From positions 48,524,788 through 48,588,787 of the forward strand of contig CM120640.1 in the NCBI GenBank assembly GCA_051362555.1: DNA of 64,000 nt, written 5' to 3'. The notes under the pieces were generated by a model that did not search any database, was not told where the DNA came from, and was given only the letters and a program-made list of their open reading frames with translations. Shown here piece by piece: positions 38,010 to 62,682 of this stretch (the stretch's first letter is position 1; the number at the start of each line of letters is the position of its first letter). Position numbers and translations under genes: made by a program. Origin of the DNA: Lingula anatina. Lineage: Eukaryota > Animalia > Brachiopoda.

Positions 38010-38507
38010 CTGAAGAAAAAAGAGGAATGCTATATTTAAAACGTTACACATCTACGTTATGTAATTAAAAAGAGAAATTTTCCTTGCCTTTATATCTGCA
38101 AATGACTTAGTAGCATTTTGAAAAAAAAAACCGGTACACAGAAAATGCTCCTGAACAGTATAACTTTTCTTCATTAAAGGTCTAAAACATGAGGAAAAAT
38201 GCCACAATTTACGTAAGATGCACACGTTCTTTTTTCGGGGTAAAATATGCTTCCCAATCGACCGGCCGAAGGGTTCTAATTCTCAAGCAAAAAATCCATA
38301 TTACAAACATTTTCGCATTCTAAGGTAGTTCTGCTACCTGCACCACTGTATCCAAGTGATGTGGCAAAACAGTTCCCAGCTGTTCCGTTTGTACTTCGTT
38401 GACATTATATATCCAAGTAAGTCGCACACACACTGCATCCACTTATAAATCACATTTTCCCTGTATTTTTATGAGTCTGGAGACAAAAATTAACTTTTAA
38501 GCCTTAC

Positions 38508-38915: not shown

Positions 38916-38950
38916 CTTTTAACACTTTCGAAAATGGTATGACAACGCAT
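38916..38950 (-). CDS. Candidate Hv variable first exon (MRCHTIFESVK)
   Basis: ATG, open frame, AG|GTAAGA donor in phase 2. Confidence 0.45.
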
Positions 38951-41660
38951 ATTTTGTTCTAGGTGAGTTTTGGATACTTGTATATATTATCGATGTATAA
39001 TTAAAAGCTGCCTGGTGATTCGAAGATTGTTTGATATAACTGGTATACCGTTTCTACAGTAACTTAGTGACTCTCAGTATCTTTTTCCTTGAACTGGTAA
39101 GGGTACTACTTTCCAGCTATTTGTATCAATTGACTCCCTTTCCGGCCCTGCTCGAGTAAACACGTAAGATATAATCATAGACTTCCGCGTTGGAAACCTA
39201 ATCTACTGTATGTATATTCTTTATTGCTTGTTGATCCAATATAATTTAATTCCAGATGATTTATGTCCTAACCTCAGCTCGAACCAAGGCAGCAAAACAA
39301 AATATCTCTTTTCAGGGAGTGGATTGCCTGGGGAGCATTTATCAGTTCACCTGAGAGAACCCAAACTGTGTTTTATTTCAAGGAAATGTTTCAAGAGAGG
39401 CATGTTAATTGGTCAATGGCCAATCTACAAAATGATAATTGTTTATACTGAAGACAAACGGAAAACAGAACAAGATGTCAAATTGCGATGTTGGTGTCCT
39501 GAAAACGAAGCCATTTCCCCCAAAGAATATATTAGGAAAACGTGCATCTCCTTATTTGCACAGAAAAACTGCGTAAAACATGTGTTAAATTTGTGAAAAT
39601 CAAACTCTCATGCAGCTATGTTTTTTTCTTTCTTCCTTTTTTTTTTTTTTTTTTTTTTGAGGGGGGGGGGGAGGCTAAGGCCCCTACCTTGCTTTACAAA
39701 TAGATAGTAAAATCCTACAAATATAAAAGGACTGATAATGAGAAAAGGTTGTGTTTAGTAGGACTTCCTCTAGGGTTAATTCACTCAGAGCTTGAGGTCA
39801 AGCTGTTCTATGAAAAAAGTTGCTGGAGATGTGGAAAATGGGAAAAATACCATTCACAACAAATTACATGTCAAACAACAAAATAGGAAGAGAAAACACA
39901 TCGTTAATTTGTACCAAGTGGCGCTACACCACGTGCATAATTTCCCGGACAAAGGTGCTCCTTTAAGAGCGACCTCTGCTAAAAAGAGGTTTTGCGGAGA
40001 AAGGGGTGTTTTAAACTTCTCTCATTGGTGTATTGAGGTGTAAACAGTGTTATATAAAACCGTAAGATTTTGGTGCACAGCAACATAAAAATAATGTACT
40101 GTTTGAATTAGACGAACACCTGCCAAATCACCGTCTCACAGACTATTAGAAACGAGAAAGATGAAAGAAACACCACTAAAATGTATTAAGTGATGTGGCT
40201 TCATTACATGGATATACAACCGCGTTATTCTATGCATGCCTGAAAGGCGAAAGAAGCGGAATAATTCATCATCGAAAAGTTCTTACAAAGACAATGTTTT
40301 TATTCCTAATGGGAACCTATTAGATTTACGATGTCTTATATAAAAGATCAAACTCCATCATTTCGACTTGAACAGGGCTTTCATGGGTTTTTGGGACGCT
40401 TTCGTTACGCAACATGTCTGAACTTTTGTTGGGTTTAGGACGTCATTTCTTTCATTATAAGATATTTCTGTGAAATTACGTTTGCTTACCACTGAAAAGA
40501 GGTTAGTCTCCACCAGACATTAATTAAGGGCATTAAGTCTCTATGAGCAATCTCGCGTGGTTTGTAGTAACATTCCTCCAGTTAATGGACGTCTGTTGCA
40601 ACATGGACTGAACATGAGTAACTGACAAGCCGCGTTTAGGTGGAACACTCATCAGAATACTAACAAGCCGAGGCACTCGGCGTATAGAAATAACACCAAT
40701 CTAAATTACAGACTTGGTCGATCGGGGGGGGGGGGGGGGGGGGGATTAGCTTTGGAAACAGATGTAAAAACAAGCCTTCAGTACACGTTGAAGATAAAAT
40801 ACTAAAGAATGAATCACGAATTTTCACATAATATGTACTGTGAATCTGTAGTAAAGTGTGATTCACCCACTGCATTACTCCAACACATTTGTTTGCTGGC
40901 AGGACACAAAATTGATCGCCCGAGTCACTTTTCGGGTGAATACGGGGATGCACGTGTTCCGTATTCCCTGCAAAGCTACGGGCGCGGCACTCGGCTTTAG
41001 ACAATTCCCCGAACCTCTAACTTAAGCTTAAAGATAAACGTAGGATTGAGTGGAATAATTATCCTTCTGGCTGACAAAGAGGACACGTTCTTGCTTTGAG
41101 CCAATTAATGTACAATGCACCTACCTTTTAAATGAACTAGAAACGATGTGATGTCTACCTATACCTTGCCTTCCGTCTAAGGTATACTTATTTCTCCACC
41201 GCATGTCAACACGGGCGTATTAATATAGAGACACCTCGTAGGGGCTTGCATATGCAGCACCAGCTGTGGCACCAGTATGGAGAGTTGTGACTTACTTTTT
41301 AATTGGTTTTAAATGTCCATTAGTTTCACGGTCGTGCTGACAATGCATACAAGAGTCAACGTACGTTACTAATCTGATATAACTTCATATTTAGCGCAAT
41401 GACGAGGTTTTATTTTAAACCGAGATAAGACAAAGTTCCAATCGCATAAATAAAAGAACTATTGTAATTTCAGTGTAAAGTCACTGCCGTGCAATAACAA
41501 CGTTAACACAGCACGCCAATCTAGTAATAAAATGCTGGGAACCGATATTATTAGTGGTGGACATGCAACAAGACCTCTCCCGAGTAGACACAAATATGAG
41601 AAAAACAATTTTCCGCATATTAAGCAATTGTTTTGGTTTCTAAATTTCACATTTACTTAC

Positions 41661-41731
41661 AAGTTTAGCGACCGAAACTTGCTGTTGTAATGGGTGTCCC
41701 TTTCACTAGAACTGCCGAACATCATCATCAT
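41661..41731 (-). CDS. Candidate Hv variable first exon (MMMMFGSSSERDTHYNSKFRSLN)
   Basis: ATG run, open frame, TT|GTAAGT donor in phase 2. Confidence 0.5.
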
Positions 41732-43473
41732 CTTGCAAAACTTGGTGTCTCTACAGAATTCTGTACGACGCCTTTGAAATCTTTAAACACTGTCCAACGA
41801 CCCACTACATCATATGTGTTAAGTACCGGGTGACACTGTTTCGTAATAACTAGACATCTGATAGCTAAGATATGCTTTAATGACACCCAATAATGATAGC
41901 TTTGACGGTCTATCTTTTGCTATATCAGAGTGATGCAACGCAAAGGACAAGAAAAGATTTTACATTGTCTGATCCTCCGTAGATACTAACATGTAAACGA
42001 TAAAGGTGCTGATTAAAATCTAATTGCACCAAGCCACTGTTTTATTTCTGATGTCGTTCACATTTTACGTGAGACAAAGACGGGTTTGGTATGGGCGTGG
42101 CTTGTGATGCAAGTTAGCTTCATAGTAATGTCGATTTTCTGTCACAAAAATATGAACCTTGAAGGCCATAACAAGCAGGCTGCTTTCCTTTGGCCACAGA
42201 ATAAGTGGATAGGAGCTTGCAATGTTTTATTTAAAATGTTTTTGCCCACCAAGAATTGAGCCCTTATGTACTTTTAGAGGTGTACCTAAAACCCGAATAC
42301 GTTCTGAAATTTATTCGATTTTTTTTTTTACTTTTCCATCAGTAATAAAATACCCAATATTTAAGTGGCCCAATATAAAGATAAAAATACCTGAAGATAT
42401 TTGCGATACCCATAGAATACTATTCGTTACGGGGATATTGTAAAACTTTAGAGCGGCAATGAAGAATTAAACAGTGCGTGAAGCGGTCAGTTGTGAATTT
42501 GGCTTCCAAATAATTATCCTACCAACATTCACCGGAACACTATTTAACATAACTTTGGGTTTGTATGAATAATTAAACACCTTTCTTCTCTTCAAATCCC
42601 TCAAATATAGGAATGTGACATTCGAGAAAAACATCTTTTGAATTTTTTTCTAGCCCAACCGTTTGCTTTGTAGGTGATACAGGACTCAAAAGTGACCATG
42701 CGTAGTTAAAAATATTCTTATGGGGGCGAGATAAATTACACAAAAGCATACGGCTACATTAATTGATAGGCAGGTACCATTTACTACATCGGTCATTTAG
42801 GGGTCATTCAGTCTGAGGGTCTAAGATCCCCATTATCTCCCTATTATGCTACATTTTCTCAATCATTCTTATTTTTGATTTAAATTGTAAATTATACGCC
42901 CGTCAATCAAAATTAATAGTACATTTTTTCCTTAATACAAGTGCTGCACGTTTTAAGGCACGTGCTTCATGAGTTCCGTTTTTATAACAGACGAAACTGC
43001 ACGAAAATGGGAGAAGGAACTAATAGTGGTCAGATAAAAACCACTCATTCGAAAACATCCTTCTCAAATTTCCCGACATAGATGACATGTGATCTGTCAA
43101 ATATTGTAATTCCATTTAGGGCAGCGGAAATCCAAATTCCTAGTCTTAAAGGCCAACTAAGATTATAAATATTTACCATAATTCATAAAACTCGGGCTTT
43201 AGTGCAACTACTACATTTTTCCTTGAATTATTGCAGCAAAGTGGAGGGGGGATCACGTCATAAGGGCTTCCAAAAAATGGGTTTGTTTCAGAAGGTAGGG
43301 ACATGAATTTCCGATATTTTACCTACTCCTGTTCGAGGTGGGAATGCTGTTAACTAGTTAAACAAAAGAAATGGCACTATGATGTTGCTTAAGCTAAAAT
43401 GAGCAAAAACGCCCAAATATTCTAATTATATATGTAACATGTTATTGGCTAGGAACAATAATCTGAAGATCTG

Positions 43474-43620
43474 AATCATCTCACAGGTGCGTGCAGCTGC
43501 TGATATATACTGAGAAAAAATATAAACGCCCCACACAATATATGTATATAATATTGTGTGTGGGGCGTTTATATTTTTGCTGAGTATATATCAGTAGCTG
43601 CACGCACCTGTGAGATGATT
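43474..43620. repeat. Long near-perfect palindrome (~147 bp)
   Basis: AATCATCTCACAGGTGCGTGCAGCT..ATAAACGCCCCACACAATAT / ATATTGTGTGTGGGGCGTTTAT..AGCTGCACGCACCTGTGAGATGATT around a short AT-rich centre. Confidence 0.9.
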
Positions 43621-43975
43621 TCATCGTAGGCCTATTTTCGTGACTTGTGCTAATATGTCACAGGTAACACAGGATATTTGGCGGACCTCATTTAAGAGGT
43701 AATCTATTGACCAACAACAGACCAGTGAGATGTCTGCATGGGTCAGTGGCATTGACCCTAATTTGAACTGTATGGCGACACTAAATGTGCATATCGGCCA
43801 CCATCAAAATTTTTGAAAATCCGAGATTTCTACCTATTACAACAATTTTAAAACATTTTTCTTCCATATTTTGAAGTCGAGATATACTATCAGTCTCTGA
43901 AATGACATATTTGTATAAATTTTCAGTCAATTGTATAGGCTAACACTTAACAGAATAACACATAACAGAATTGAA

Positions 43976-44233
43976 CTTTAAACCACGGCTAGCGCGTAGA
44001 ACAAAAGACTCGGCCGTGCTGTATGCGACATACAAGCACGTCATGTACGAGTGCGTTCCACGGTCTGTTGCACTACTAGTGTAGTAGCCAATCAGAGGCC
44101 GTGGTTTAAGCCAGATACAACACTCGTCGCCGAGCTGTACGTGAAAATTACTCGTGTATTGTCTCGCCTGCGGCTCGCCAATACACTCGTAATATTTCAC
44201 GTACAGCTCGGCGACTCGTATTGTATCTATCAC
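43976..44233. mobile_element. 258-bp dispersed double-hairpin element, copy B
   Basis: Near-identical to 18435-18692, same orientation. Confidence 0.8.
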
Positions 44234-44322
44234 AAATATGTGATAAATAGACCTTTGTTGATATGATCTCAAGTATGCGTCATGCTTAAATAAGAACGTT
44301 ACCAGAATAGGTACGTCTTATA

Positions 44323-44550
44323 CAGTGGCGGATTTAGAAAAATATATCACACCCTCTTGAAATAAGAATTTTGACTAGCTAAATCATAGTTCTAAACCGT
44401 TCCAAAGGGCACTGTTTGCTCTTTAAAACACCAAACGATTTTCGGGGCCCTTGAGCAGCGAACCCCACACTAAGGGGGCGACGGTCGGCTTCGCAACCGA
44501 GGCCTGTTGTTCTGCCCCCCCTCCTTCAAATAATCCTGGATGCGCCCCTT
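44323..44550. mobile_element. Possible hAT-like MITE
   Basis: Imperfect TIRs CAGTGGCGGATTTAG / CTGGATGCGCCCCT with a GC-rich interior. TSD not clean. Confidence 0.4.
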
Positions 44551-45254
44551 TTATACATGTATTTTTCTGATAAATGTCAAATTAAATGACAATTGGTACA
44601 AAGTCAATTTCAAAAGACACAATGTAAAATTTTTCTGAAGTTAAAATACACTCATTTGAGAGATATAATGAGATATGATAAATCTGATGTTTTTAATGTG
44701 GAACCTATTATTACGACCGCACACGTAAGCATTTAAATTCCTATCACTCACCCCTACCGTTTTTACTACCCCCATTACGATTATTTCTAAATTCAATGAT
44801 GTTATCTAAATATATTTTTTTCTTTTCTGAACAAACTCATAATTCGTACCTGTGATACATGGACCTGTCACGGAAATTATTTAACTTTTGGTGTTTCTCT
44901 AAAACATGCAATGAATCTATAAAATGCGTTAGCTGAACTACACACCTTTTGACTACATGTATAACGGGCATGTACAACATCGTCTAATCAAAAAATGGAC
45001 CAACATTTGCAAGTAAAGCATCATCACCTGTGAATACAACTGCAGAAAATGCAAAGGAAGCGTGCCACTATAAATCACTGAATTAAAAAAAAACAATATA
45101 ACAAGATAACTAGTCAAAGGAACAATTTACACAATAGGAAAAGGTTTAAGGAGGGTTCACCATCATGAGTATTAGTTCCAGAACATTATACCAGAGAGAA
45201 AAGCCATGGACCTTTCACACTATTAATTAACATTGATTTAAAATGCTTACCTTA

Positions 45255-45931
45255 TGCCCCTATTTCACACAGACCACGAATCCCACGAATGGCCATGAAT
45301 TGACAAATTTCACGATTCGTGGTTGAATCGTAATCAGTTCGTGAAGTTCTTAACAGATTCGTATATATTCGTAGTCAGTTCTTGCACTTCTTGACCAACA
45401 GGAATGGGTGGCAAAAACGTTGATGCCCCTATTTCACACAGACCACGAACCCACGAATCGCCAGGAATTGAAAATTTGGTTGAATCGTAATCAGTTCGTG
45501 AAGTTCTTAACTGATTCGTATATAATCGTAGTAAGTTCTTGCAATTCTTGATCAATCGGGAATTCGTGGCAAACATTTTGAGCTGTTCATAGTTTTGGCC
45601 ACGAACTCCCGATTCCAAAAAATCGTAGTGAATTTCTGGACAATATTCGTGCGATTCCAGCCGAATCCCACGAATATTCGTAACGCTATCGCACCTGTAT
45701 CGTAACTGAATCGTAGAGCGTGTCGAATTAGACCAGAAAATTGGCAAAATCTCACGATTCCAGCCGAATCCCACGAATATTCGTAACACTATCGTACCTG
45801 TATCGTAACTGAATCGTGAGCGTGTCGAATAAGACCAGAAAATTGGTTAAATCTCACGAATCCTCACGAATCCTAAAATTTGTCAATTCCTGGCGATTCG
45901 TGGGATTCTTGGTCTGTGTGAAATAGGGGCC
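45255..45931. mobile_element. PIF/Harbinger-type MITE (677 bp) with TTA TSD and internal duplications
   Basis: TIR GCCCCTATTTCACACAGACCA / TGGTCTGTGTGAAATAGGGGC, flanked by TTA at 45252-45254 and 45932-45934. The left end is duplicated at 45424, and there is a ~100-bp internal tandem at ~45652/45755. Confidence 0.8.
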
Positions 45932-48900
45932 TTAGGAAACATCATAGAAAAATCTGACTGGACTACAAGAACTGTCCTGACTCACCCTGAATTAACAGTC
46001 CAAAGCTTATGTTTATGGTTTATCTTCCTAGCGCAACCAGACCTCATCATGATCTTCCCAAATTGGAATGTACTAGAAACCAGGGGGTGGTTTGGGAAAA
46101 GCAAACCTATGTCACTGATTCTAAAAGCTCAGAAGACTCTGCTTTACGTGAATCTGAGGCAACTCTTAAATATCGGCAAAATTTAACACACGATACATTT
46201 CACCTTTATCTGACGAGTTGACGTTTATGGTTTTGATGAGGAAATTATATTTATAAAAAACGACGAAAAGATAACTTTTGCCGCTCTTAATTTTCAGGTA
46301 ATAGATATAATTTAGTGGGCGCTACGTTGTCATCAGACACCTTAGACGGCACTTGTTTGTGATTAACTGGTAAAGTACATTAAGTTTTGATCGAAATCTT
46401 TTTGAAAGAGTGACTTTGAGATTGTACAGACAAAAGTCGTCATGGAGCTTAATCGGAGTGACTATTTTCTTAAATGTTGTCAAGTTTCCATTACTCCTTT
46501 TTTTTTCTTGGTCTCCGAAGTCAAACGAAGAATAAGAAGGTGTTATGTAATAGGGTTTACAAACTTTCCTCTTAACTATGACAGTGACTGACAGATCACT
46601 ACACGACGTGGTGATTAGGGGACAGTGCAGAACTTTGGTGCCTCCTCCCCCTCTCCCAGCCACTTTTCACGGGCCATTCTGTTTTATTTTTTTTCTTGTG
46701 ACGTAAGTTTGAGGCGTGATCTTGAAAATAACACAATGCTCGTAAAACGTAAACATACTTCAATCAAGATGCACAATATTAGTACGTAGAACGCCCCGTT
46801 TTCTGGGGTAGTAGACGTTACCGGACAGACGTTGACGTGTCATCTTGCAACTCGAGTCGTATGGCATAAAGTTCCGCCAGTAAATAAAGAAAATTCTAGA
46901 GGACAGATGAATAATCGTCAGTATTATGCTTCGACCCCTTTTAGAAATGAAACGCCTTTTGTGATATTCGAAGCGCCTTTGATGTGTTTACGAGTTAGTT
47001 TAATTTTCTTTTTATACTGCAGAAATATTCTGTTAAATCAACTGTAAGCTGTAGCCTATGTTTCTCTCGAAATTGCATAACTTCTCATTCATTCTCTTTA
47101 ATTCGATTTATATTTCTTGGGTTTTACTAAACAATCAAAGCTAGAATAATAGTTTATTAAAAGAAATAATTTTTCTTTGAAGTATCGGAGTGGAACTGTC
47201 TTTTGAAGAAACTATTACTGAAACTTAAAACGAATTCATGAGACTGTAAACCACACCACCTTTCGCTGATATCTTAAACGGAATATATCTTATTTCTCCT
47301 TAGGCGGAAATGGCATTTTGCTATTTTAATAGAAACAAATCTTTGCCATTTGATGGAAACACCGTTGAGATTATTATCAGCAAATTCAAAAACAGTGGTC
47401 ATACGCTACATGTCAGAATTTTCATTATAATCAGCAAAGTTGAAAGACAAACTGACTCCTTCATTACTCACAGAGTTATGTTTAGCTTATTCACAATTCT
47501 AACATGAAATTTTATTTGAGTCTTTTTAATCATGTGTATGATAAATCATGAAAATGTTTACATCCCGAATAAAGTTTACAGTGCCCAGCATAAGGACAAA
47601 GGTGCATGTTTGCATGTCCGTGTCCACTTAGATCTTATATAATATTCTGATTGTTCGCCGTCGCTTATTATATATTATAATTCCTTCAATTAAAGGGAAT
47701 CGGCACTATCTGCAAAATCTTTGTTTGTTAAGCTTTGCCGGGGGTATATGCTGGGTGAAAAAAACACAATCACTAAAGCTGTCTGATAAATAAAGCGCTA
47801 TCCTGGACAGTCTGCACTTTTCCCCTTTTTATTTTCTTTAAAACCGGACTAAATGAAGTAACCAGCTCCCGACAAACAATGTGAGGAATAACATTACAGT
47901 TGTGCTGGTAATGGAAACCCATGATAACACGAAGGCAAAGATGCACTGAAGCATTCAGCCGCTCAATGACGGTGCGCACCGATGATTGTGTGGCGAGATG
48001 AAGTCGTCCTTTGTGATTTATGCGTCTAAAGTGCATGTCAAACACGTGCAAATTCATATTTAACTATGGTAAATCACAAAACTTATACAACATAAAAACG
48101 TTAACAACATAACTCGAAAAAGACATGCCTTCAAACCTTTTCAAGAAAGTTTTTAGGTCATTAAAAATTGTAAGGGAAGGGGTATCATTTGCATACGTAT
48201 GTAAAGGATATAATTGATCCACTTATAAATCCAAATATTGTGCTAATAAGACTCTGTATACCCAACAATGCTTTAATCAGTGACTTTTTGAATCAACCTG
48301 ACTATGACAGTTTATAGATTTAAAGTTTACGAGGTTCAAGTAAACGTAAACATCTGGTTTTATGATGTAAATTTTTGTAAACATGTCAAAGTAACGGCGA
48401 GCTTTTTGGTGGACGAAGATCACTATGACAGCGTCGGGTGCTGGTGTTACTACACAGGTAAACAACTGGTACATTTATATGGTTAAAATGTCCGGCTTCA
48501 TTCCCTTGTATGCCTAACGCTAGCATCAGAAGTTCACTGAAGCCCTTATTCCTACACTCTGACCACAGGATCTGCTAATTATCCTAAACTTTAACTTTGG
48601 GTACTACTACATGTAGTACATGTATTTCAGAGGCCTCTGATATCAGAGTGAACCATGTTCCTATAATGTACTGTAGGTGAGATGGGACGATTAAAAGACA
48701 AAACTACAAAAAAATCTCGTGCCTAATGTGAACGTACAAAGTTAAACTCTTCACCGTGGCTGGTGTTCTTTATCTAAATCGTGTGACATCGCGATAATCA
48801 ATCAAGTTTACGTATATTGGATCGTAGCAAGGTTGAATTTTAGATTACAGAATACCCGACCGACGTCGGTAATGTTCAGTAAAAACACGCCTCTTGTGTG

Positions 48901-49768
48901 AACGACATCTTACTTTCGAAATAGGCTTTTCTACCCCCAAAACAATGTTTATTTCAAATAGAGACCAATATCCGAGTTAGACGGTCTGCTCTTGGAACGT
49001 TTTATTCGCTCCACACTGAAATAGAGCATCGGATCAAGAAACATTACTTAGGACGACATATTACACATGTAGCATTCTTTGAGCACTGTCAAATGTTAAA
49101 GATTCAGAGTTGGGCTTCTTATTTACGGTGTAAACCTTTCGAATTGATCCACTTTTGTGATTGACTACCTATTCAGAGGAAAATACATGTACCAAGTGGG
49201 AGCATTTTCAAAGATTTCTTTCGCTATAAACATGTGCCATCTGATCTTTATACAGTACTTGCTTTTATTCTCTTGTGTACCTCCCAAATGCTATGATGTA
49301 ATAGAGCTTTTGCATTATACCGTAACAATGCCATTTACGACATTGTACTCCAACACTGAAAGCGCTTACAGTGTACAATTGTGACCACTACGTGTTCAGT
49401 GAGGTGGACGTTATGAAAAACAACTGGGCGAATTTTACATAAGCCTCCCCCTTTTCTTTACCATATTGAAGATTCATCTAAGTTTGTAGAATATAGATTA
49501 TTTATCTTTATTATATTCAGGACGATATATGAAAACAAGAATACACCAATATTCGGTGCATTGCATAATCTGTGCTGTATTGGGTGCAGAAAGACGAAAA
49601 TACTCGTTCCCTAAGTAGGCTATAATGTATTGTTGCCCAGACATCTTAATCACTCTTTTGACCTGTTCATTTTCTTCTGCAGTATTAAAATCGTGAACTT
49701 TCATTTTACTTTATAAATAGTGTCTGTCCATTTTAATCTACTTGATGAAATTACGTAACTCCGCCTAC

Positions 49769-49875
49769 CTTCGGTCCAAATTTTTCTCTGGATGTCTGCG
49801 GGGACAGGACTTGATGTCGCTGACCGCTGAAGTAATACCAAAAATCCCATTAAGGGCAGTTTTTTGGGGAGCCAT
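49769..49875 (-). CDS. Candidate Hv variable first exon (MAPQKTALNGIFGITSAVSDIKSCPRRHPEKNLDR)
   Basis: ATG, 35-codon open frame, AG|GTAGGC donor in phase 2; TATA box ~60 bp upstream. Confidence 0.5.
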
Positions 49876-49935
49876 AAGGTATATGCCAAAGATAGTTTAA
49901 TATCAGAGATAACACTAGCTCACGACCATCCTAGC

Positions 49936-49978
49936 TATTTATAGAGCACCGTCCCTTTAGTTGACGAGACGTCACGTG
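49936..49978 (-). promoter_or_regulatory. TATA box with adjacent CRE-like/E-box motif
   Basis: TATAAATA (minus, 49936-49943). GACGTCA (49968-49974) overlaps CACGTG (49973-49978) ~25-30 bp further upstream. Confidence 0.45.
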
Positions 49979-52900
49979 ATTTAATGTGCCTTCGTTTTGC
50001 AGGTCTTAATGACTAATGGAGGTGGCGTCACTTGTGCTGCCAGCGCGTCATACCTGTGTAACCAAATATACTAGGACCACAGTTGACACCTGTAGCAAAC
50101 ACCTACATGTACTTTATGCTCTTCACAAATGTTATAAAGTTTCGTAACTAAGATTTTCCCTTTAGCGAAAACTTAGTAGTAAAATAATGAATATTAAAGT
50201 TAAATTGGAGCTACTCGTTATTGGACAAAAGAGGGAAATGCATAAAGAATAGGCTGAACCATGACAGGACCACAGCTAAAATGTCTTCATATAAAAATAG
50301 GAATAAATAAAATAACTTATCACTTGCACCTAATGGCAATAAACCGAGAAAGCCTTTGTAGTGCGTGACGTCATACGAGATTAGAAAAACGCGAGATTTC
50401 GCCTGCCGTGGGGCGATTGATTTTACCCTAAGAAGTAAGCCATTCTCATTGCACTTAATTGACCTATCGGTTAAAAACCATCTTTATTGAGAATTAAATG
50501 TTAGTTTAATCTATCTTATGTTTCTTAAACAATATCGACTATTTTTCCTAAGTTAATTGTATTGTACCTTAGATTATTAATTAATCGAAAAAATCTTAAG
50601 TGCTCTGCCGACGGCTATCAAACCCTAATTGATGGGTCTCACTCAAAGTCCAAAATGGCGTGGTAACAACATTTATACTTGATTAGACAAAGCACATTTT
50701 GTTTACATCACAACATGCTTGTTTGCACAATTTGCATGTGTCAGTCACAGAGAGTTCAGAACATCCTGCTATTATTTAGATGAAGGTATGCATTCGCACG
50801 TCTTATCGCCAAAATCATTCGGAGCAACATCTACATGTATTGTCCTTATCACCCCCCTCCCCGGTACATACAAAATGCCCTCTGCCGTGATAACAGATAG
50901 AATTTTTTTTCAAAATAAATCCACATGCATTTCTCTGGCTATTCTGTGCACTTTTCTATACTAAAAAAAAAAAGAAAAAAAGAAAATCACCCAGCTGGCT
51001 GGTTGAGAGAACATGCAGGGCACTCCAAATGAATAGGGAAGAGAACGGAATCGCTGAGGGTGCATTCAGATTCACACATCGTACTAGCTGGATCTGTCCA
51101 ACTTTGCAGGGGATTTTCTATACAAGTTTAATGATTGCCATAGGTCTATCTCTATTGGTTTCAGATATATTTGTTGGCCATAAGTAATATTTCAAGGTGA
51201 TACCTGAATTCCCAATGAAGACAGACCCAGATCAGAACACATTCATTGATTGACGTGTCCTATGATGCGTTGGGAATTTTTCAGCTTTTGTTTGCCATTT
51301 TCCCTTGTTTGCAGCGAAAGCGGTGTACAATTATCGGATTCTGGATCTACTACTTATGTGAAAAAACTTTCTTAAACCCATTGCGTACAACATCTTACTC
51401 GAGTTAGATGCCAAGGTAAAACCAAACTGAAATTAATCATGGACTTAAAACAAACTAAAGATGTTGACGATACTGTCCTAAATGATGGATGTGTTGCTTT
51501 TTACATGTTAATGTGGGTTTGGCACATGTTACACGTCAGCATACATACGCAGTTAGGGGAGTAAACTACGGTGACCTGGTTTAAAGTTTAACTCTCTCAG
51601 CTGGTCATGCTTAATTGTCTGCCTATTAGTCTACTATTTTTTAATTACAAACGGTACATATGGAATAGATGTTCATACCTGAGGTGGTCTGATAAGTAAA
51701 AGTTCGCCAAGCACTTCTTTTTCTACATGTACAGCCATCCATACAAATTACACTTAGAGAGAAAATGATATTGGCATTGTAATATACTATAAAACGCTAC
51801 CTTTTAACCATTCAGTACATTTAAACATATTCTCCATCAAACAATCTTTTTCAAGGCGAGCACTAGTATTTAGATAATGTCACACTTAATCAATTTGGAC
51901 CTGTTAGTCAAAAACGCAGAACTGTAACAGTTTTAGATCTGGGTGGAGGGGGAAGTTGTGACTCAGAAGGAATGTATGCTGATTGATAATGGGATGGCAT
52001 TTCTTGTTCTCGGCTCGGGTGAAACGATTAAAACTCTTGTCGGCTGCCTTGTTTATCTTCAAGAATGGCACTTAGTTGTTATTTCGTTCTTGAACGATAT
52101 GTCGTCATTTACATTTGTGTAGTTGCTTGATAGACCGATATATCGGAAATAACTCCTACGAAAGCCAATAGATAAGGCAATTAGTGCAACAAACATGTGT
52201 AAACGCTGAAATTACATGTATTGGTACAGCACTCTTTGTACAAAAGAGAGCAAGTGTTGGCAAGTGTTAATTGCCTTTTTTATCTTTTAACACTCAGAAA
52301 AATCAAGCACTTTGATGCCTGATAAACAATGACAGTCCAACTGATTTACATTTAAAAAACTCAAGGGTAATGACACACTAACAAATTATATATAAACACC
52401 TTTTGTCCCTATGCATTTTACATACCAGGAAACTATGACTTGATAAAGATCGCATGAAACATGTACCATGGAGCGATGATGTAATGAGATCGGGAACTAA
52501 TAGAACCTAGTGCGGAGATCGTCTCAGTTTGCAACATGTTCTAAAATGAAATCTACGACCTAGAGACCTGCTTGGCTGCACCGCTAGTCACAATTTGTCA
52601 CCGATACACGAGAGTAGTTTTTACAAATGGCAAGTAAATATGCCCTTAGTGGTACACGTTTCTTGTCACAGTCATTGACTGAGCCAAACTGGTGGTCGAT
52701 GGAAGAAGGGCGCCCATGATTCACGAAAACCCAGTTATATTTATACTCAGACCGTCTTCAAAGAATTTAGTTGTAGTTTTGAAGTCATAATGATGGACGC
52801 ACGCAAAAAACTGTGGTGACAATGAATCAGTTTTAGACAAAATTTGATAGTGTTTTAGTTATTATTATTATTATTTGCGCACGACAGTTCCTGCAAAAAT

Positions 52901-53939
52901 GATAACAATAATTTATGAATAAAATTTGAAAAATATCAATGACTACCACGTTTAATGAAGTGTAAAAAAAATAAGCCAACTATCTGTTCTGTAAGATTGT
53001 GGGAAGAGAAAACGGTACCACGATGTGTGAACACTTTTGATGCTTGCTCAGTCAGTTTCATGACCCTCAAAATAGTTATTCATGTATAAAGCACTGCGAA
53101 TTTATGCTGGTTTCACAAAAACGACAAATTTAACCGGATTCATTAATCACAATGCTCAGACTTAATGGAAACCTAATCTCTCTTCTATTTCTCCTCAAAA
53201 TTATTTTACTGACCATATCAAGTATGCCAAATCGGGAAATGGGGAGTTGTGCAGAATATACAAACCTGTCGTTTTAGTTTAACTGAATAAAAAAACACGA
53301 CCTACTTGGACAAAGTATAAAACAATCAAGTTAAAGTTTGCAGTTTGGTAAAAGCCAACTAGAAGGTAATTTCCATCATCGTACCGGTAAGAGCGGTCGG
53401 ATTCAGCTGGCCTAGACCATAGTGAGCTGGTTCAGCCAAGGCAGTAGGCACTCGCCAAGGTCCGTCCTGACTACCGTGTGGCTGCTTATTCATAACACTG
53501 TTCATGATTAAAACTTGAAAATTGTGTGCTTCTCAATATTTTCCAACCAGTTCTTATCATGCCTAATAAACGTATTGTGCGTCTGTTCTTTTGGGAAATT
53601 AATAATCGCACCGGAGGTAACGCGTGAACCGCTTTGAAGATCTCGAAAATAAAGCGAACCGGAACGATTACTAGGCACCCGAGCAGCTGGTGCAAAACAC
53701 AGACAAGATAAGTTTCTATATAAATCCATAACTCTTTATCAATGAAAACAATGTACATAATTGTTTGATACGCGCGGTTTCTCAAAAAAAGTTACTTGAC
53801 CGAGGGGCCGATAGATAAAAACCTCAGCCTGTTCAGAAACTTGTGGAACTCGGTCTGACGGTCAGGGGTCGATTTCAAACTCTGGATCCGGGTATCCAAT
53901 GTTTGCACTCCATGACAATGTTGATAAAAAAATTATTAC

Positions 53940-53977
53940 CTTGCGAACAATTCGGCGTGCCCTTTCCTTACAGACAT
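53940..53977 (-). CDS. Candidate Hv variable first exon (MSVRKGHAELFA)
   Basis: ACC-ATG context, AG|GTAATA phase-2 donor, TATAAAAA at 54062-54069 (minus). Confidence 0.4.
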
Positions 53978-54483
53978 GGTCTTCGGTTGGAGCACCCACG
54001 GCAAATCACACACTTTCTCAGAGACAATCGCACTGTATATGCATCGGCGATTCCTCCCTTATTTTTATACTCTAAGTGATATGCGGGTTGTTTTATGAAG
54101 TCCATTGTCACAAAAATCTTCACCGTGCTAAATTAGGCTTGAAGTCTTAAAATAAGCCCTTATGACTACTATACAGTAAGCATACTTGTCAAGTAATTAT
54201 GATTAAGATGAATGAAAATGACCAGGGTCCGTCACTCTTTAACACGGATGAAGAAACCCTATGAAACCCGTTGAAACCCTATCTCTCCCTAACCACCCCT
54301 CTCCCTTTCTCTCTTTAGCGCAAGATAGAGATTTTAATCATACAGGAGTCGAGCGCTAGCCTGAGTGATGAAAGTAATTATAAGAATTTTAATTAGGCTT
54401 ACACAGGTGCTTACTCTTTTCATATCGACATGGCAAGATTGTCTGTAGATAACTACCAAGGTCTTACCTTCCGAGATACTTAC

Positions 54484-54566
54484 GGCGACACTAACATCAA
54501 TATGCAAATGTAAAGCAATGTCGACATCATGCCAACATCCCGTGTTGTGCGAAACAGAGCTCCCAT
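54484..54566 (-). CDS. Candidate Hv variable first exon (MGALFRTTRDVGMMSTLLYICILMLVS)
   Basis: CC|GTAAGT phase-2 donor; TATAAA at 54695-54700 (minus). An upstream out-of-frame ATG at 54582 weakens the call. Confidence 0.35.
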
Positions 54567-55365
54567 CTAGAAACATCTCCATGTGTGTTTGTAGTAACAG
54601 GCCATGTAGTAGCTAATGCTGAGTCTGCTTATGAACATTAGTCAAAGAACTGCGGCGTGTGATGAGGAAACAGCGTAGAATCAGGGAAAAGCACTTTATA
54701 TTGCTTAAATGGTACAGTGAAATAAACCGAAATCTACGGAACTTATGTCATGGGCTTCTCTTTGCATACATGTGTAAGAAGATCCAAAGGACGAAGAACA
54801 TCAATATGTAGGTCTACTATATATTGTGGATTCAAGGAAAATGAAGAACAGAACTTACTACTTTTGTAACTATAAAACTATTGTTCAACATCATTTAACT
54901 TTTGAGACTGTCTATAGATAACTGTTAAAATGTGATAATCCCTCCACCACGTAAAAGTTATAACGCCATAGTTTTTACGATAGCCATTTTGTACTCAGTG
55001 CAAAGGCAAAGTCAACATACGCATACCGTATTTAGGGTGCTTTACATATTCAATTAGAATAGGGCAACATTTCAGAAGATTTACGTAAAAAGAAACAGTT
55101 TTGTCGGAATCTCACGAAGAATTTTGGTCGGATTTTCAGTATCCTGGGTTAGTTCCGAAAACGATTGAAGTCGAGAGTTTTGTGAAAAAAAATGGTTACG
55201 TTTTTAACTGAGCCCCCAGAGAAAATTTTGACTATCTTGAAAACGTCCTCTACTCTCAGTTAGCATGTCACTGCAGTTGTTTGGGGTCGATCATTCATAT
55301 TTACCAGAACAATATTGCAAAGCTAATTTTACGATCTTCGTAGTCTAAGTTTACCTCCCCCCTCT

Positions 55366-55369
<4 letters not shown>

Positions 55370-55413
<44 letters not shown>

Positions 55414-55428
55414 TGAGAGAGAGAGAGA
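55370..55428. repeat. Compound (TG)n(GA)n microsatellite
   Basis: Read directly. Confidence 0.95.
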
Positions 55429-56099
55429 AAGAAACGAGACCCTTTTTGTAACCATAACATGCATAACATGGTGATTAGGACTTGTATTGCACTTTTTCTG
55501 AGAAAATAGCGGTTAAATACTGTATTTCGACATTACAGTTTGGACTAAGGGTTTCGAATCGGACGCATACAAGAACGTAACGACAGTCACCGAGTCAAAC
55601 AGAGACATTACTACGTAGTATTTAGAGTAGTCATGGAACAAGAGCTGATGGATTGTTTTAGGCTAAAGTTGCGTAATATAATGCAGTTGATGTACATTCT
55701 GTAGCAAGCCACGCATTAAGACAAGCAAAACATGGTGATTGCGACAAAATAGGGGCTTGTAAAGTAGGAATTTCGGATTAATAATTAAAGCTTTGTTATA
55801 TTGTTCTTCAAGCAAACCCTTCTAATTATCTTTTTTTATATGTTCTAAAACCCATTATATCACTTTCGATTTAAACATACAATAGAGCCACAGATTAAAA
55901 ACTCAATTACTAAAACAAAGCTTAACCATTTGACGAAAGGAGCGTTAGGCACTTCCTACTATCTATTATATTTTCCTGGACCCAGCTGGAGCGGTACCTT
56001 CATCAGTGCTGCTCCAATTAGAATTCTATAATTTTGATTAAGTGAAAAAAAGATATTCTCTCGACTGAGAATTACGACCGTCTAGTGTCAATTACTTAC

Positions 56100-56140
56100 C
56101 GGGCAATTAGCTCCGAGCTGATAGCAGTGTTGCGACCCAT
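56100..56140 (-). CDS. Candidate Hv variable first exon (MGRNTAISSELIA)
   Basis: ATG, open frame, CG|GTAAGT phase-2 donor. Confidence 0.4.
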
Positions 56141-57288
56141 ATGGTAACCATACACATGTTGTCTGCAACGTTTTTGTTTTCTTAAACTTATCCTTTTTAA
56201 TACAGCACTGGCCATTTCTTTATTTGATTTATCTTGTAGAAGCCGATGGATCTAGTTCAATGTAAATTTCAACAGGTTATCTCAAACTGTGCTCGATACC
56301 AACAGTTCCAGTTGTTCGACTTTCTGATAAACCATCTTTATCCTAAGAAACAATATTCAGCAATTTCCAGAATATGTGCGATCGTTATTTGAGACAGCTA
56401 TAAAAACGTCATGTAAATTTGGAGGAGAATATAAAATGTTGCCGTCCCATAATGCCGTTGAATGTGTTGATCAGTGCCATAATCAGATTGCAGGAGTGAA
56501 ATTGCCAGTTGAATTGTATCGTTTGCCCTCTAACAACCTATCAATATGTCCCAGGAACATCCACCAGGAACTTCAATATGTCAAGAGTAAATGGCGAAGA
56601 ACTTCAATCCATCTCTATACCTTGCTGATGAATGGTGTTCATTAAGATTGTCTCAAGCAACCTAAGCAATTTGGTTTATTGGTAGAATCAAGGCGATCGA
56701 CTGTCTTCAATCGAGGTAACACTGGCGTTTCTCTCACCCATGCATCCTTAGAATATGCCAACGCTGCCAACACCTATCCCTAACAGAACAATATTTTAAA
56801 AGGCATCCCTGGCCATGCTTGTGTGCAGGCAAAAACAGGCTGGAGATAAGGGTAGTGCAGGATATACAAAATGAAGGAAACCAAACCCTGGTCTATATGT
56901 GCAGTACCTACACTGTATACATTCTCGGCACATTTCGCGTTGCCCCAAATAAACATTCTGAAACAGTGTTACTGTTCTGTGTCACGCTCCCTTTTATCGG
57001 GTTTGATTTGCGTACATTTCGGTTCATACCGTTGAAGGCACACCTTAAATATACGCAAAGATGCTAGAACCCAATAGGCCTTCATTTTTCTAGCAGTTGG
57101 TAACACATACATGCAGAAAACATGGATTTAACTCGACGCGAGTTGAACTGATATACAGTAACATCAATCTTAACAATAGATACTATACCCTATGATCCAA
57201 TTCTAAGTACAAACACTTACAACTATGTAAACATTATATAAACCTGTCATCTCATCAATAAAGCCAATAAAGCAAATAGCTTTCTTAC

Positions 57289-57335
57289 CAGTACGAGTTT
57301 TTAAATACGCCACACATTGAACTTTGAAAAGCCAT
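57289..57335 (-). CDS. Candidate Hv variable first exon (MAFQSSMCGVFKNSY; frame open further upstream)
   Basis: TG|GTAAGA phase-2 donor at the end of ORF 57285-57503. Confidence 0.35.
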
Positions 57336-60300
57336 GTTGTGAAAAAAGAAAGCATCAGTACTTAAGATGACACACTGAGGTTTATCATGGATGGTACAGA
57401 AACTAAAATAAAGATTTGGTCTGAAAGACATACTTAAGTGATAGATGAATGAACCTGATGAACTGACATTAGAAATAGAAAATGCGATCAAAACCCATTT
57501 CACGTAGTATTTCGCACCAAAAATCCGCTACCTGTCTTTTAAAAGTCGTCAGTGTATTGTGCTCTTATCTAATGCTCCCACACTCGGCATTTCGCAAGTT
57601 CGTGGGGTTACAAAACACACGTTATACGCCTTGTGAGTCGCATTTCTCAACTCGTGTTTGGCAGGGATAATTTATGAGGCAATGCGATATCCGATCCTTA
57701 GATTAACCGCCACCACTAGACGGACACTTTAAACCGGTAATTTTTCGACCGCAACAAATATCGCCAATAAAAGGTGAGATTCATGTGTCAGGTAAATATA
57801 TAATTATAGACCTAAGAAAAAGTGGATGCCAATTTAGTTCTACTTGAGATTAACTGGGGCTTAAGAGGCCTTGCCATCAGAGTTTAAAATGCAAAAAGTT
57901 CTCTTCGCAAACCAACATTATCATGTACATGTTCCACAGTGTTTCGTATTCATGTATGGATTAAATGTGTGTCAGGTTTTCATTCTAATTTTTTTCTTGC
58001 TAGATACAAGAAGTGCAAAGCACATCTCTACATTACTGACTGCTCACGGCTGTTTAGATTGCTTCTAAATGCGCTCTTTAAGAAGAGGAGACATCAACTG
58101 AGTAGTAAAAATACTAAAAATTATTCACTTCCTTTAACGCAAAAACATGTTCTTATATTCAAATAAAATATATAGATATTAAATAAAATTTATTTAAAAA
58201 TTCAAATATTCTTTAAAATAAAAAATATAATTGTTAAATATTTAGTCCACCAAAAAGTTTCATTACCATTAATCCCTCATGGTAAACTTGAAAACTAACA
58301 GAGAATATGTCAATAACTCATTTCCCATACAGAAAGCTGTGTCCTTTTTATTTCGTCATTATCCTGTGAGTTATCTCCTAGTGTACGGCTAGCGTACTAA
58401 TTATCATCTCTAACAACGCCGTCTTAGATATTTCATTATTGTTTCGACATCTATTGTCTTAATTACCTTGTAAAATATTACCGACAAGTATTCTTGGCAC
58501 GATGACAAATTCACGCTTTCATTTGTGTATTCTAGATATCCGTATTGAGCGCCATCAATGTTTTATTTGTTGTCGTATATAGTACTGGAAAATTTTCAGT
58601 TCCTGTCCGTATTTGTAAGGAGACAAATTTCTTTTGGTTTAGTTAGTTTAACTAAAACGCCTAAGGCAACGTCCATTGTCGTATTCAGTAAATGCATTCA
58701 ATAAGCGGTGAGATATATCATTTACTATACATCAATAATAAGGAGCAAAACAACAAATTGTCCTATTTGTAACAATATATCTATAGTTCATTGATCGTGA
58801 ATAATTGATCTAATTCAATGACTCAGTGAAAACACACAGGAGACATCCGTTGATTAGCAAACACATTTTCTCTCTCAAAGAGACATTTGTTGAAGAGAGC
58901 AAGAAAATCTTTATTTCACTACCTGTTTTGAATATTCCTGTAAAGTGTTAAGGTCGACTGGTGCACTGTTTTAACTATAATCCAAGCATTGCAAATTGAA
59001 TATAAATGGCTTATAGCCTTCTACGTTCTAAAATTCTTCGAAAATAGGACGAAACGGAGGGGGGGGGGGGTATTTTGTATACTGTCTAAGGTGGGTAGGT
59101 GGGATGTAAGGATGCAGGCAAAACACGTGTTCTATCTTCTCACCATTCTCTTAGAAAATTGAATGCCATCGTGCTGTGAACAGGTATGACATGGATAAAA
59201 CAATGATGTAAGGGTTTATCTACGGTAAACTATTAGAGTTATAAACCCCTTCAAGGAATTCCAATTATAGCTATTATTTTAAACCCATTTCCTATACTGC
59301 TTTGTTATACAATCAATTCAACCAAATATCGTGTAACAAAATGTTCCTTAACAGAAAACTCACTATATCCTTCTTATCAAAAATCTTTAATCAATCTTAA
59401 CAATTCTAAAGTTGAAAAATGAATCGTCAGCATTTTCAAAATGAATACTGCACAGAGCGTTAGTTCAATTGGATTTGTCAATGCTGTAGCAATGATCGAG
59501 ATGCTCCATTTCTTTATAAAAATCGATATAAGATCATACTCAATTACGAGGCTCCCATTATCTGTGACTGAGCGTAAAGATGTTGCGTCATTACCATAGG
59601 CAAGAATCAATTTTAATTTTAAAACGTCACAACTGGACTTTTTAATTACCGTCAGTTGCTCTTTCTGTGGTCATCAGACATGATTTACTATATACTGACA
59701 AATAATTACTGGCAGCTGACTAAAAACAGTTTAATAACCAAGGTTACAGTCAAAGAGCACGTGATTGATTATGTTTCAATGACCATTGGTAACATGCTTG
59801 GAGCAGATTGATTGCCATGGTAACATGCTCGGGTCATATTGTTTCGGATTTTTTGATGCGTTCATATTAAAAAGGTCAAGGCAAGATGGCATCGTATTAA
59901 GTTGAAACTAGCAGAGAAACCCCTGTTCGTTAAAATTATCAATCATGAGCAGTCAAGTCCACGGTTGTCGACCCCTTATTGTATTGAACGTTTCTTGTTT
60001 AGGCACCATCTAAAATGTGCTTTTGGTGAAAGCATCATTGGAACTCGTGACAGGCGTAGCGCAGCATTTTTTTTCTGCGTCTTATTAATATCGCACGTCT
60101 TAACCAGAATATCGGATACTTCTGACTAAAAAAAAAAAAAAAGAAATCCATAGATGAGCTGCAATAACTATTGACATTTAAAAGACAATCTACTGAAAAG
60201 TTTTTCAAACATTTTTCTTCCATCAGCTCTATTGCTAGACCCATGTCTTGTAACAGTAGAGCGCATGTCTTTTCAAAGAATGGCGTAATTAATTAATGGC

Positions 60301-60595
60301 CTCATTCACTGAGCTTTCTTGTCTGCGCGGGGTGTCATTCATTATTCACATTGAAGGGAGTAGTTACATTTTATCGATGTAGACAAAGCAGGCCTTATTC
60401 GACCCTGCCTGTTTTGACCAGTTGGAGCTATTTGATCAGTGACCTGTTCAGGGAAAAGGGAACATTTACTAAGATAGAATTCGTTTGCTTACCATTGATC
60501 GTTTTTTTCAATACCATACCAGATACAGTATATTTTAACATCTTTAAGGTACTTCACCCACGGAACCCATCCAGCTATAACCACCCGTTAATCAA

Positions 60596-60803
60596 ATTTA
60601 GACCACGGTGTAAATGAAGAACAAAAGACTCGGACGTGGTGTAACTCGCATAACCGCACGTCTTGCATGAATGCGTTATAACCCGTTCATGGACCGTGGT
60701 CTAAATAAGATAGACCCCTCGTCAGCGGGGGTTATGTGACATCCACTCGTGCTACGCACTCGTGTATGCCACATAACCCTCGCTGACTCGGGGTCTATCT
60801 ATT
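60596..60803. mobile_element. Diverged relative of the double-hairpin element (copy C)
   Basis: Stem ATTTAGACCACGGT/ACCGTGGTCTAAAT encloses the shared AGAACAAAAGACTCGG core. It is followed by the hairpin AGATAGACCCC..GGTTATGTG / CACATAACC..GGGGTCTATCT with CTCG internal loops. Confidence 0.7.
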
Positions 60804-60945
60804 ACCTATCCAGTTATGTCTGTCCGTAACTTCAGCTACCCACTTATTACCCGGTACTGGCCGTAACTTCACCTACCCACCTATGACTAACCTATCTAGT
60901 TATGACTGTTCGTAACATAACCTGCCCAGCTATGACTGTCCGGTT
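60804..60945. repeat. Degenerate ~31-bp minisatellite
   Basis: ACCTA(T/C)CCA(G/C)(T/C)TATGACTGTCCGTAAC-like unit repeated ~4-5 times. Confidence 0.6.
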
Positions 60946-62632
60946 ACCTACATCTGCGTTTTCATTTCGGGTAACAAATGTTTGTTTGTTAGTTTAATAG
61001 ATGTACATACATTATAAAAGGTTCACATATTATATGTTTCCCCGTATCTTCGGAAATACCAATATCTTCAGACACTTAAAACAAGTTTCAATACAACACA
61101 GGACTCGCAACATAGCCGAAATTCACCGAAGAAAAGTGAAGATCACCCAAAAATGCAATACAACAGGCTTTAGTTTCTTTGAAGAGAGTGGTTTTATCTC
61201 CGTTTTACAAATATGTCATGTTATTCATGGAAAAATTCAATATTGTAAAATACTTTGATTGGATGCTCACTATAAGCTCTCGTATCATGCATAAACTAAT
61301 AGACACCTTGTATCTGATAAGCTTCAGCTTAATCAATAGTCCAAGTGGACAATAAATCAACCTGTCTGTCATTTTCTCCATCACATAATCTGACACATGT
61401 ATTGATTATAACGCCAAACAGGGAACGTCTTCGCTCAGGTGCTGATTCGCTCATCAGACTGACTTCATAATGGCCCGAATGAAGCTGAACTATCCTTTAT
61501 TAATATATGTAGGCAACTCTTTACATTGAGCACAGCTCTCATGATTCCTCTCTTGTACTATCATGTTTGGATATATTAACTTGTTTAAAACAAAACAAAA
61601 AATAAATAAATAAATAAATAAAAATAGAAAAGGGTTCCATTTTTCAGTGGGGAGGTGTGCTGAGATAAGAAAACAGTCGAATAAATTTCATATTATGAAC
61701 CATAGAGTTAAAGGACACATAGTCAGGGGGCAATTTGGAGTAGAGGGTAAAAGCGTTAGATGATGAAAGCTCACTACCGAAGCGACTTTTTCCATACTAT
61801 TCCATAACAGGCTATATCCTACAGAACTAAACTGTCATTTTCAATGATATGTTAGAGCGTGGGGTATTGCTCTAATACGATATCACAACCTGATCATTGT
61901 ACTGGCTTGTTTGAAAGTAAATGGAAAAGCGGCGCAGATGTACATGTAAGTACTTAACGGTCATCAATTCTGGTTATTGTCGTTATTTTGAGATTCTCTC
62001 TGAGTGGCAATGGTGTCTGCTAATGTAACAGCAGCTGTCTTTGATAAGGCCAGTCAATATTAGCTTGGCCACGGTCAACAGTTAGCGTCTGTACGTTTGA
62101 TCGTAATGATTAACAATATACATGTATATATGGTTGGAATTGAGCTGTCAGTAAACACATTTACATGGTCTTTGGAGAGGTAGGCTACAGCCTATCCGAA
62201 CCTATTGCGACCGTCGAAACCACTGCTTTTACCGGCAACAGGTGGTTGCAGATGCTCCAAAGTTGGTTAAAATGTGTGTGCAAATGTTATTAAATGCATT
62301 CTGGTCTTTAAGGATCGAGCTGTCCGTCAGTGAAAACCATGTGATGTATGTGAATACGTGGCATCGCCCTGTGCATTTGTTATTTTGGCAAACGAAAGTC
62401 AACCTTAACCCTTGGCAAACATGAACAGCTAGTAGTTTTTTTCTGTTGGCAGCCCTGTATTGATACCATTTTACTAAATTGGCACTCAATCCACATAGTT
62501 TTTTTTTTCAGATTAGAATGAAATACATACATGCAACTATACTAAGTTGTATGGGACATTTGCTTCGTAATCATTGGATTGCACCCTGGTAGAAACAAGC
62601 TTATAAACGCATTTGATTTCATCGGAACTCAC

Positions 62633-62682
62633 CTGCTTATACGACTCATGTGGTGTTTCTTGTACTTTACGCGTTTCATCAC
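62633..62682 (-). CDS. Candidate most-distal Hv coding exon (MKRVKYKKHHMSRIS)
   Basis: Acceptor GAGCAG|, ATG at 62679, strong CAG|GTGAGT donor in phase 2. Joining it to exon 38009 gives ..MSRISSLSSQFSFLRH... Confidence 0.5.

Follow-up and report, generated by a model that had tools for sequence, protein, structure and literature searches.

How can a channel gene whose shared coding body offers no usable start codon give rise to a complete channel, and from how many places can it be started? The question is raised by a 64,000-nt stretch of the genome of the brachiopod Lingula anatina (assembly GCA_051362555.1, contig CM120640.1, positions 48,524,788-48,588,787; this whole stretch is the window, and all positions below are counted within it), whose minus strand carries LOC106155662, a relative of the voltage-gated proton (Hv) channels. 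The exon at 37890-38009, the first that all forms of the gene share, has a phase-2 acceptor and no start codon, just as a first-pass annotation made from the DNA letters had described it. The evidence gathered here supports an arrangement in which multiple alternative, ATG-bearing upstream exons are spliced onto this one constant acceptor.

A homologue search with one constant exon as query matched LOC106155662 of L. anatina as its sole cluster. This RefSeq cluster has seven members (XP_013386052.1 and six others, isoforms X1-X7), the differences among which are confined to the region upstream of the first constant residue. A ten-exon model read from the window encodes 641 amino acids and carries 4 substitutions relative to isoform X7 (XP_013386105.1); because only 4 of 641 residues differ, the window represents another haplotype or a very close relative. 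Six of the seven RefSeq N-termini were located in the window, and five of these coincide with candidate first exons proposed in the first-pass annotation. For the start of isoform X3, tblastn and peptide-word searches gave nothing credible within the window; its exon is probably to be sought beyond the upstream end or on a different haplotype. All ten segments proposed earlier are ATG-initiated, stop-free, 2 mod 3 in length, terminated by GT and in frame into exon 38009-37890; as an array of first exons, however, the list divides into the five segments that are RefSeq N-termini and five that RefSeq LOC106155662 lacks (40490, 54484, 56100, 57289 and 62633), which remain candidates. The first exons, whose peptides span 11-35 residues each, are the following:

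38338..38438, minus strand: first coding exon of isoform X2; exact N-terminus match; 33 residues with 4 Cys; weak donor (1.2 bits); absent from the first-pass annotation
38916..38950, minus strand: first coding exon of isoform X7; RefSeq match; joined to 38009 in reads, with coverage reaching at least 39037
40490..40533, minus strand: candidate first coding exon; phase 2, donor 4.7 bits; no RefSeq isoform and no read joint seen
41125..41204, minus strand: first coding exon of isoform X4; exact match; basic peptide, net +5
41661..41731, minus strand: first coding exon of isoform X5; RefSeq match with one substitution
49769..49875, minus strand: first coding exon of isoform X1; exact match; the ATG is preceded by a TATA-like box at 68 nt and a CRE-like site at 99 nt
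53940..53977, minus strand: first coding exon of isoform X6; exact match; TATA-like box 92 nt upstream
54484..54566, minus strand: candidate first coding exon; weak donor (2.1 bits); second half hydrophobic; TATA-like box 134 nt upstream; unsupported by RefSeq or reads
56100..56140, minus strand: candidate first coding exon; strong donor (7.5 bits); the frame has an earlier ATG as well, 116 nt ahead of the donor
57289..57335, minus strand: candidate first coding exon; donor 5.0 bits; an earlier in-frame ATG; sense-type reads in its bin
62633..62679, minus strand: candidate first coding exon; strongest donor (8.6 bits); an earlier in-frame ATG; basic peptide, net +6; outside the regions covered by reads

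Beyond the segments proposed earlier, the minus-strand donors 41296, 52426, 55369, 45986, 44946 and 44850 likewise score at least 4 bits and close ATG-open phase-2 frames; donor 55369 follows a CA repeat, and donors 45986, 44946 and 44850 are within a repeat block or close to one.

The phase of the donors carries much of the argument. Every GT on both strands was scored with a generic donor matrix of rough weights. Between 38010 and 64000, the minus strand has 25 donors that reach 4 bits; 13 of these close a phase-2 ATG-open frame of at least 20 nt, against 5/25 in phase 0 and 5/25 in phase 1 (binomial p 0.0004 versus 0.20; Fisher p 0.006). On the plus strand of the same stretch only 1 of 18 donors closes such a phase-2 frame, and the minus strand of 1-29000 returned 5/17 in phase 2 and 4/17 in phase 0. 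Weak GTs pass at a rate of 0.18-0.20 in each phase, which is the chance rate and agrees with the one in four or five guessed in the first-pass annotation; the enrichment of phase 2 over the other two phases and over the opposite strand likewise bears out the array proposed there. Varying the threshold over 2-6 bits leaves the excess in place (binomial p 0.0004-0.02), as does masking of two repeat blocks, and when the six annotated donors are removed, 10 of 22 strong donors are still in phase 2 (p 0.006). A mixture estimate places the number of further real exons at 4.9 (95% interval 1-7) with repeats masked and at 6.9 (3-10) unmasked, the lower figure being the safer because some of the residual donors fall within repeats or have a frame in common. 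From these figures we infer that about five more unannotated first exons are real, so that a total of approximately 12, of which seven are annotated, is plausible.

Raw reads add a view of the RNA. Eight of nine same-species runs were used, with ~6% or ~25% of each, over 37801-57800 for runs X1, X4, X7 and X8 and over 33001-43400 for runs X2, X3, X5 and X6 (run labels, distinct from those of the RefSeq isoforms). The read set for 37801-57800 is dominated by repeat-derived reads, and the results hold among the joints and loose ends listed. Two real joints were found in 33001-43400, both in run X5: one links 38009 to 38916 in 3 reads with canonical ends (CT..AC), and the other links 33532 to 37890 in 6 reads, also with canonical ends. 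Loose-end reads in the same run connect 33408 to the next exon (32485-32960). Run X4 contributes 7 reads at 39004 that cover the 38916 exon, and run X1, unlike run X4, shows depth on the constant-exon bin and none on the 38916 bin; at these very low depths, the contrast is consistent with sample-specific exon choice. Run X1 also holds sense-type reads at 57144-57800 (depth 0.92), the bin of candidate 57289, which are suggestive only and include no joint. Depth on the constant exon amounts to at most 8 reads in any run and to zero in runs X7 and X8, and expression of the gene is low.

What, then, would confine the upstream exons to one phase? The first in-frame Met of the shared region is residue 69, four residues past an Asp in the first transmembrane helix (S1) that aligns with the selectivity-filter Asp of human Hv1, and 5 out-of-frame ATGs precede it. 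Because the shared body thus has no in-frame Met until past the S1 Asp, every promoter must carry its own ATG. In a transcript with a non-coding leader, the out-of-frame ATGs, five in all, would come first, and the Met that follows them lies beyond the selectivity Asp; since such a leader cannot yield a whole channel, selection would keep only phase-2 ATG exons, and a new intronic promoter would give rise to a channel only if its exon brings an ATG in phase 2. The explanation we favor, with moderate confidence, is therefore one of independently acquired promoters, likely expressed in a tissue- or stage-specific manner, with peptides that serve mainly as obligatory start adaptors. Each start exon would be a true first exon whose own promoter activates the one channel in a tissue or stage distinct from the others, and the first exons are likely to have arisen one by one from intron DNA; some of the adaptor peptides might have gained secondary targeting effects. 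The phase bias is explained without invoking any function of the peptides, because the shared region contains no usable start codon.

Separate origins are in keeping with the lack of kinship among the exons. Eleven exons (6 annotated and 5 candidates) were compared, each with 300 nt upstream and 60 nt downstream. Across the 55 pairs the mean DNA score was 20.3 versus 20.3 for the null, and the maximum was 27 versus 28; the peptides are unrelated and share no motif (best pair p 0.003 of 55 pairs), no repeat family links the first exons, and the spacing between them is irregular (536-8108 nt). In each of the 11 exons the ATG is preceded by an in-frame stop. These comparisons bear directly on the analogy drawn in the first-pass annotation with clustered protocadherins and UGT1A. 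A cluster of that type would consist of variable exons that were duplicated in tandem and have a promoter element in common, with a choice among them that might be stochastic. The tandem order and the common phase would suit such a cluster. Yet neither the exons nor their 300-nt upstream regions resemble one another, and the exons, which encode no domain, are not duplicated whole-domain paralogues; the analogy fails at this point, and we regard a cluster of that type as extremely unlikely.

Several observations weigh against the reading of independently acquired promoters. Among the joints listed, no donor besides 38916, the most proximal strong exon, is joined to 38009; the first-pass annotation had envisaged many junctions on this acceptor, of which the reads supply one, alongside the seven N-termini of the RefSeq models. 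These RefSeq isoforms, X1-X7, are themselves computed models. The donor matrix is also imperfect, in that 3 of 6 RefSeq donors score below 4 bits, and some of the residual donors behind the phase-2 count share a frame or lie in repeats. Taken together, such points might suggest that one main exon, 38916, does the work, and that the others are rare leaky transcripts captured in the annotation together with chance ATG-donor pairs; 38916 is indeed the only exon seen joined in raw reads, and several annotated donors are weak. However, the single joint onto 38009 weighs only weakly against the array because the reads are shallow, too shallow for minor or tissue-specific forms. Five of the ten blind predictions coincide with RefSeq models, and the phase-2 excess (p 0.0004), which survives the removal of annotated exons, cannot be RNA noise because the bias sits in the DNA itself. 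We consider the leaky-transcript account improbable.

Other contrary points concern the promoters. No transcription start site was mapped in the read data. The three TATA boxes noticed in the first-pass annotation do occur, 68 nt before the ATG at 49875, 92 nt before that at 53977 and 134 nt before that at 54566, but TATA in 3 of 11 exons is no enrichment over a background of 17%, and scans for TATA, CRE, E-box and CCAAT elements, together with pairwise upstream alignment, disclosed no common promoter signature. The best upstream acceptors score 0.0-4.6 bits, with a background median of 2.1, under a matrix weak enough that two true acceptors fall below 0. The lack of mapped start sites and of TATA enrichment would also accord with segments that are internal, mutually exclusive exons behind one non-coding leader, spliced in cis or in trans, and a few exons do have a moderate acceptor-like site upstream (4.3-4.6 bits). 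Against this stand the upstream acceptors as a whole, which are at background level, and the read data, which among the joints listed in 33001-43400 contain no joint upstream of 38916 at a depth of ~8. A single-leader arrangement appears very unlikely to us.

The peptides themselves raise the last objections to their being mainly start adaptors. They vary in character, from that of isoform X2 with 4 Cys to the basic peptides of isoform X4 (net +5) and candidate 62633 (net +6) and the hydrophobic peptide of candidate 54484. One may accordingly ask whether they are targeting or gating modules (a Cys cluster, a polybasic run, a hydrophobic anchor) that would adapt one channel to many locations or thresholds, a view that is compatible with separate promoters. 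A short alternative N-terminus recurs in three species of Haliotis, which hints at functional retention; localization motifs are mentioned for molluscan Hv channels in a review (PMC10377628), and work on KChIP and DPP6-like proteins (DPLP; PMC3973911) and on plectin (PMC3695321) provides precedent. On the other side, codon use in the six RefSeq exons (-0.19 bits/codon) is indistinguishable from that of intronic open frames (-0.50 to -0.14; constant region, +0.12), although a test on 134 codons has low power and the score falls between intron and coding. No motif is common to the peptides, they are not recognizably conserved in 10 aligned relatives (the alignment took isoforms X3 and X7 only), and the phase bias is accounted for without them. 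We judge it rather unlikely that peptide function is the principal explanation, and retain the reading of independently acquired promoters.

What kind of channel do these exons start? The constant part of the gene is composed of the following exons:

37890..38009, minus strand: first constant exon, encoding an acidic motif; strong phase-2 acceptor and no in-frame ATG
33408..33532, minus strand: constant exon encoding S1; selectivity Asp codon at 33459-33457, first in-frame Met four residues later
32485..32960, minus strand: constant exon encoding an S1-S2 loop that is very large and rich in His and Ser, together with most of S2
31952..32005, minus strand: constant exon encoding the S2-S3 linker
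31612..31750, minus strand: constant exon encoding S3 and S4; motif LMWRxxR (no Pro)
29731..31392, minus strand: four C-terminal constant exons (31277-31392, 30980-31058, 30644-30731 and 29731-30424) encoding a predicted helix after S4 and a long low-complexity tail

The protein matches Pfam Ion_trans and has a four-helix voltage-sensor domain homologous to that of Hv1, human Hv1 (5oqk) being its best solved relative (E 5e-12). The S1 Asp is invariant in 12 aligned sequences, and the acidic motif of the first constant exon is conserved in bryozoan, annelid and flatworm relatives. The features of a conventional Hv1 are lacking, however: S4 reads LMWRxxR rather than RxWRxxR, its first Arg being replaced by Leu, and the S1-S2 loop comprises ~150 residues instead of being short. 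Where mollusc Hv3 channels (xPWRxxR) have Pro before the Trp, the Lingula channel has Met. By these sequence characters, LOC106155662 is an Hv3-like large-loop channel and not a classical Hv1, so the enhanced-gating site of Hv1, to which the first-pass annotation had appealed, does not transfer to it by default. Its product would conduct protons, to judge from the S1 Asp and from the Hv3 channel of Aplysia. The name TMEM266, which two RefSeq isoforms bear, was set aside on the grounds that the protein keeps the S1 Asp and has Hv1 as its best solved relative; the tree described below was built without TMEM266.

Large-loop Hv channels with and without the S4 proline occur across the Lophotrochozoa, in an account whose available portion makes no mention of Lingula (PMC10377628). 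In the same account, Aplysia AcHv3 is described as a proton conductor whose voltage dependence is weak and which leaks in the closed state (PMC10377628). AcHv3 and other unconventional lophotrochozoan Hv channels have, in common with the Lingula protein, a large S1-S2 loop, a long intracellular tail, the S1 Asp and the change of the first S4 Arg to Leu, as far as that text extends (PMC10377628); unlike AcHv3, the Lingula channel has no S4 proline. A HMMER search for homologues gave 583 matches, of which 150 were listed, and word-indexed searches returned the Lingula cluster alone. In a quick tree of 96 sequences, which left out two thirds of the conventional-motif sequences and those without a parsable S4, Lingula falls among non-proline bryozoan, nemertean and flatworm sequences, beside the proline-bearing clade, with a support that is not strong (SH-aLRT 88). 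Two further observations emerged from these relatives. Haliotis LOC124141029, of Hv3 type, carries Glu in place of the S1 selectivity Asp; and the consecutive accessions CAH1787433.1 and CAH1787434.1 of Owenia fusiformis each match one half of the Lingula protein, the N-terminal and the C-terminal respectively, and are probably one orthologue split into two gene models.

Is the Lingula gene alone in having several starts? Isoforms with different N-termini were found in 2 of 20 relatives looked up, most of the others having one gene model, so that absence is uninformative. The Haliotis gene has three N-terminus types among the 15 of 17 members listed, and the Ostrea gene has two. In both, the joining point of the variants corresponds in the alignment to the boundary between the first and second constant exons of Lingula, one exon further in; they too would be first exons. 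The Lingula paralogue LOC106156217 displays no isoform series. Alternative N-termini are thus recurrent in Hv3-class genes, and the Lingula set is the largest among those looked up. A separate observation concerns this same boundary: on the minus strand at 35392-35537 lies an ATG-started, acidic frame of 48 codons that ends on a phase-2 GT and is in frame with exon 33532, a possible further first exon that would bypass 38009-37890 at the junction the Haliotis variants use. No sense reads were seen over this frame, which is located in the intron after the first constant exon.

The DNA around the array was described in the first-pass annotation as gene-empty. With respect to genes this holds, in that 0 of 11 long open reading frames (ORFs) in 39-64 kb reach the Pfam cut-off and Rfam gives 0 matches, but transcribed repeats are present. 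The segment 45247-45939 resembles a non-autonomous DNA transposon: it has 75-nt inverted repeats at its ends, internal direct repeats and heavy read cover that stems from other copies. Short palindromic (MITE-like) elements occupy 43474-43620, 43998-44266 and 60618-60800; the 43998 element resembles the 60618 element, and ORF translations suggest a further copy at 18417-18716. About 12 tandem copies of a 38-nt unit fill 63246-63717. Elsewhere in the window, exons resembling a sodium/calcium exchanger (Pfam Na_Ca_ex, just below cut-off) lie on the plus strand at 20434-25152, convergent with the channel gene, and a plus-strand frame of 198 codons at 15648-16244 has no Pfam match, its second half resembling the start of a type II membrane protein.

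How novel is the arrangement? In the literature searched, the available portions of which did not extend to the primary mollusc Hv studies, we found no account of alternative first exons in an Hv gene or of this Lingula gene. The architecture is nonetheless known and common, and RefSeq already lists seven N-termini, which make up most of the array; both points limit the surprise, though the set is unusually rich for the Hv family. With 7 annotated and perhaps ~12 N-termini on one Hv3-like core, the gene constitutes a panel for probing the function of the Hv N-terminus and exemplifies a second route to lophotrochozoan Hv diversity, in addition to the duplication of genes. A further lesson is that where no start codon is available downstream, this lack can impose a phase bias on first exons. 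It is enticing to speculate further that 12 or more intron-born promoters supply a dozen N-termini that send one leaky-type channel to different tissues or compartments, e.g. shell-forming mantle, gametes and neurons, in place of the gene duplication seen in bivalves, which have up to eleven Hv genes. We advance this broader proposal tentatively and think it doubtful; if the promoters are indeed intron-born, the locus would provide a natural series for how new coding exons arise and gain function.

The array finally invites comparison with known multi-first-exon systems. The short isoform of human HVCN1 is reportedly, going by the title of a paper, a truncation and not part of an alternative peptide set. 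Hv channels are described as poor in isoforms. The account cited for AcHv3 gives two human splice variants (PMC10377628); human HVCN1 accordingly shares N-terminal variation with Lingula, but with two variants only. Clustered protocadherins, UGT1A and GCNT2 resemble the Lingula array in having tandem first exons spliced to constant exons. Their variable exons, however, are highly similar whole-domain duplicates (PMC1885805), in contrast to the unrelated and tiny exons of Lingula. Closer models would be plectin and KChIP/DPP6, and by analogy we infer that LOC106155662 is a multi-promoter gene of the plectin/KChIP type, since its ATG-bearing exons are short, unrelated and enter exon 2 in one phase. 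The plectin gene (PLEC) has nine short first coding exons that join a common exon 2 (PMC3695321), and the Lingula array is alike; plectin is a cytolinker with N-termini of shown localization role, whereas the role of the Lingula peptides is putative. KChIP1-4 and DPP6/DPP10, which belong to an ion-channel complex, likewise use alternative promoters and first exons, through which a constant core receives differing cytoplasmic N-termini, according to one description (PMC3973911). These proteins are auxiliary subunits, with 4-5 variants per DPLP gene and measured effects on gating and trafficking in that same text, whereas the Lingula gene would encode the conducting subunit itself, with 7 or more variants.

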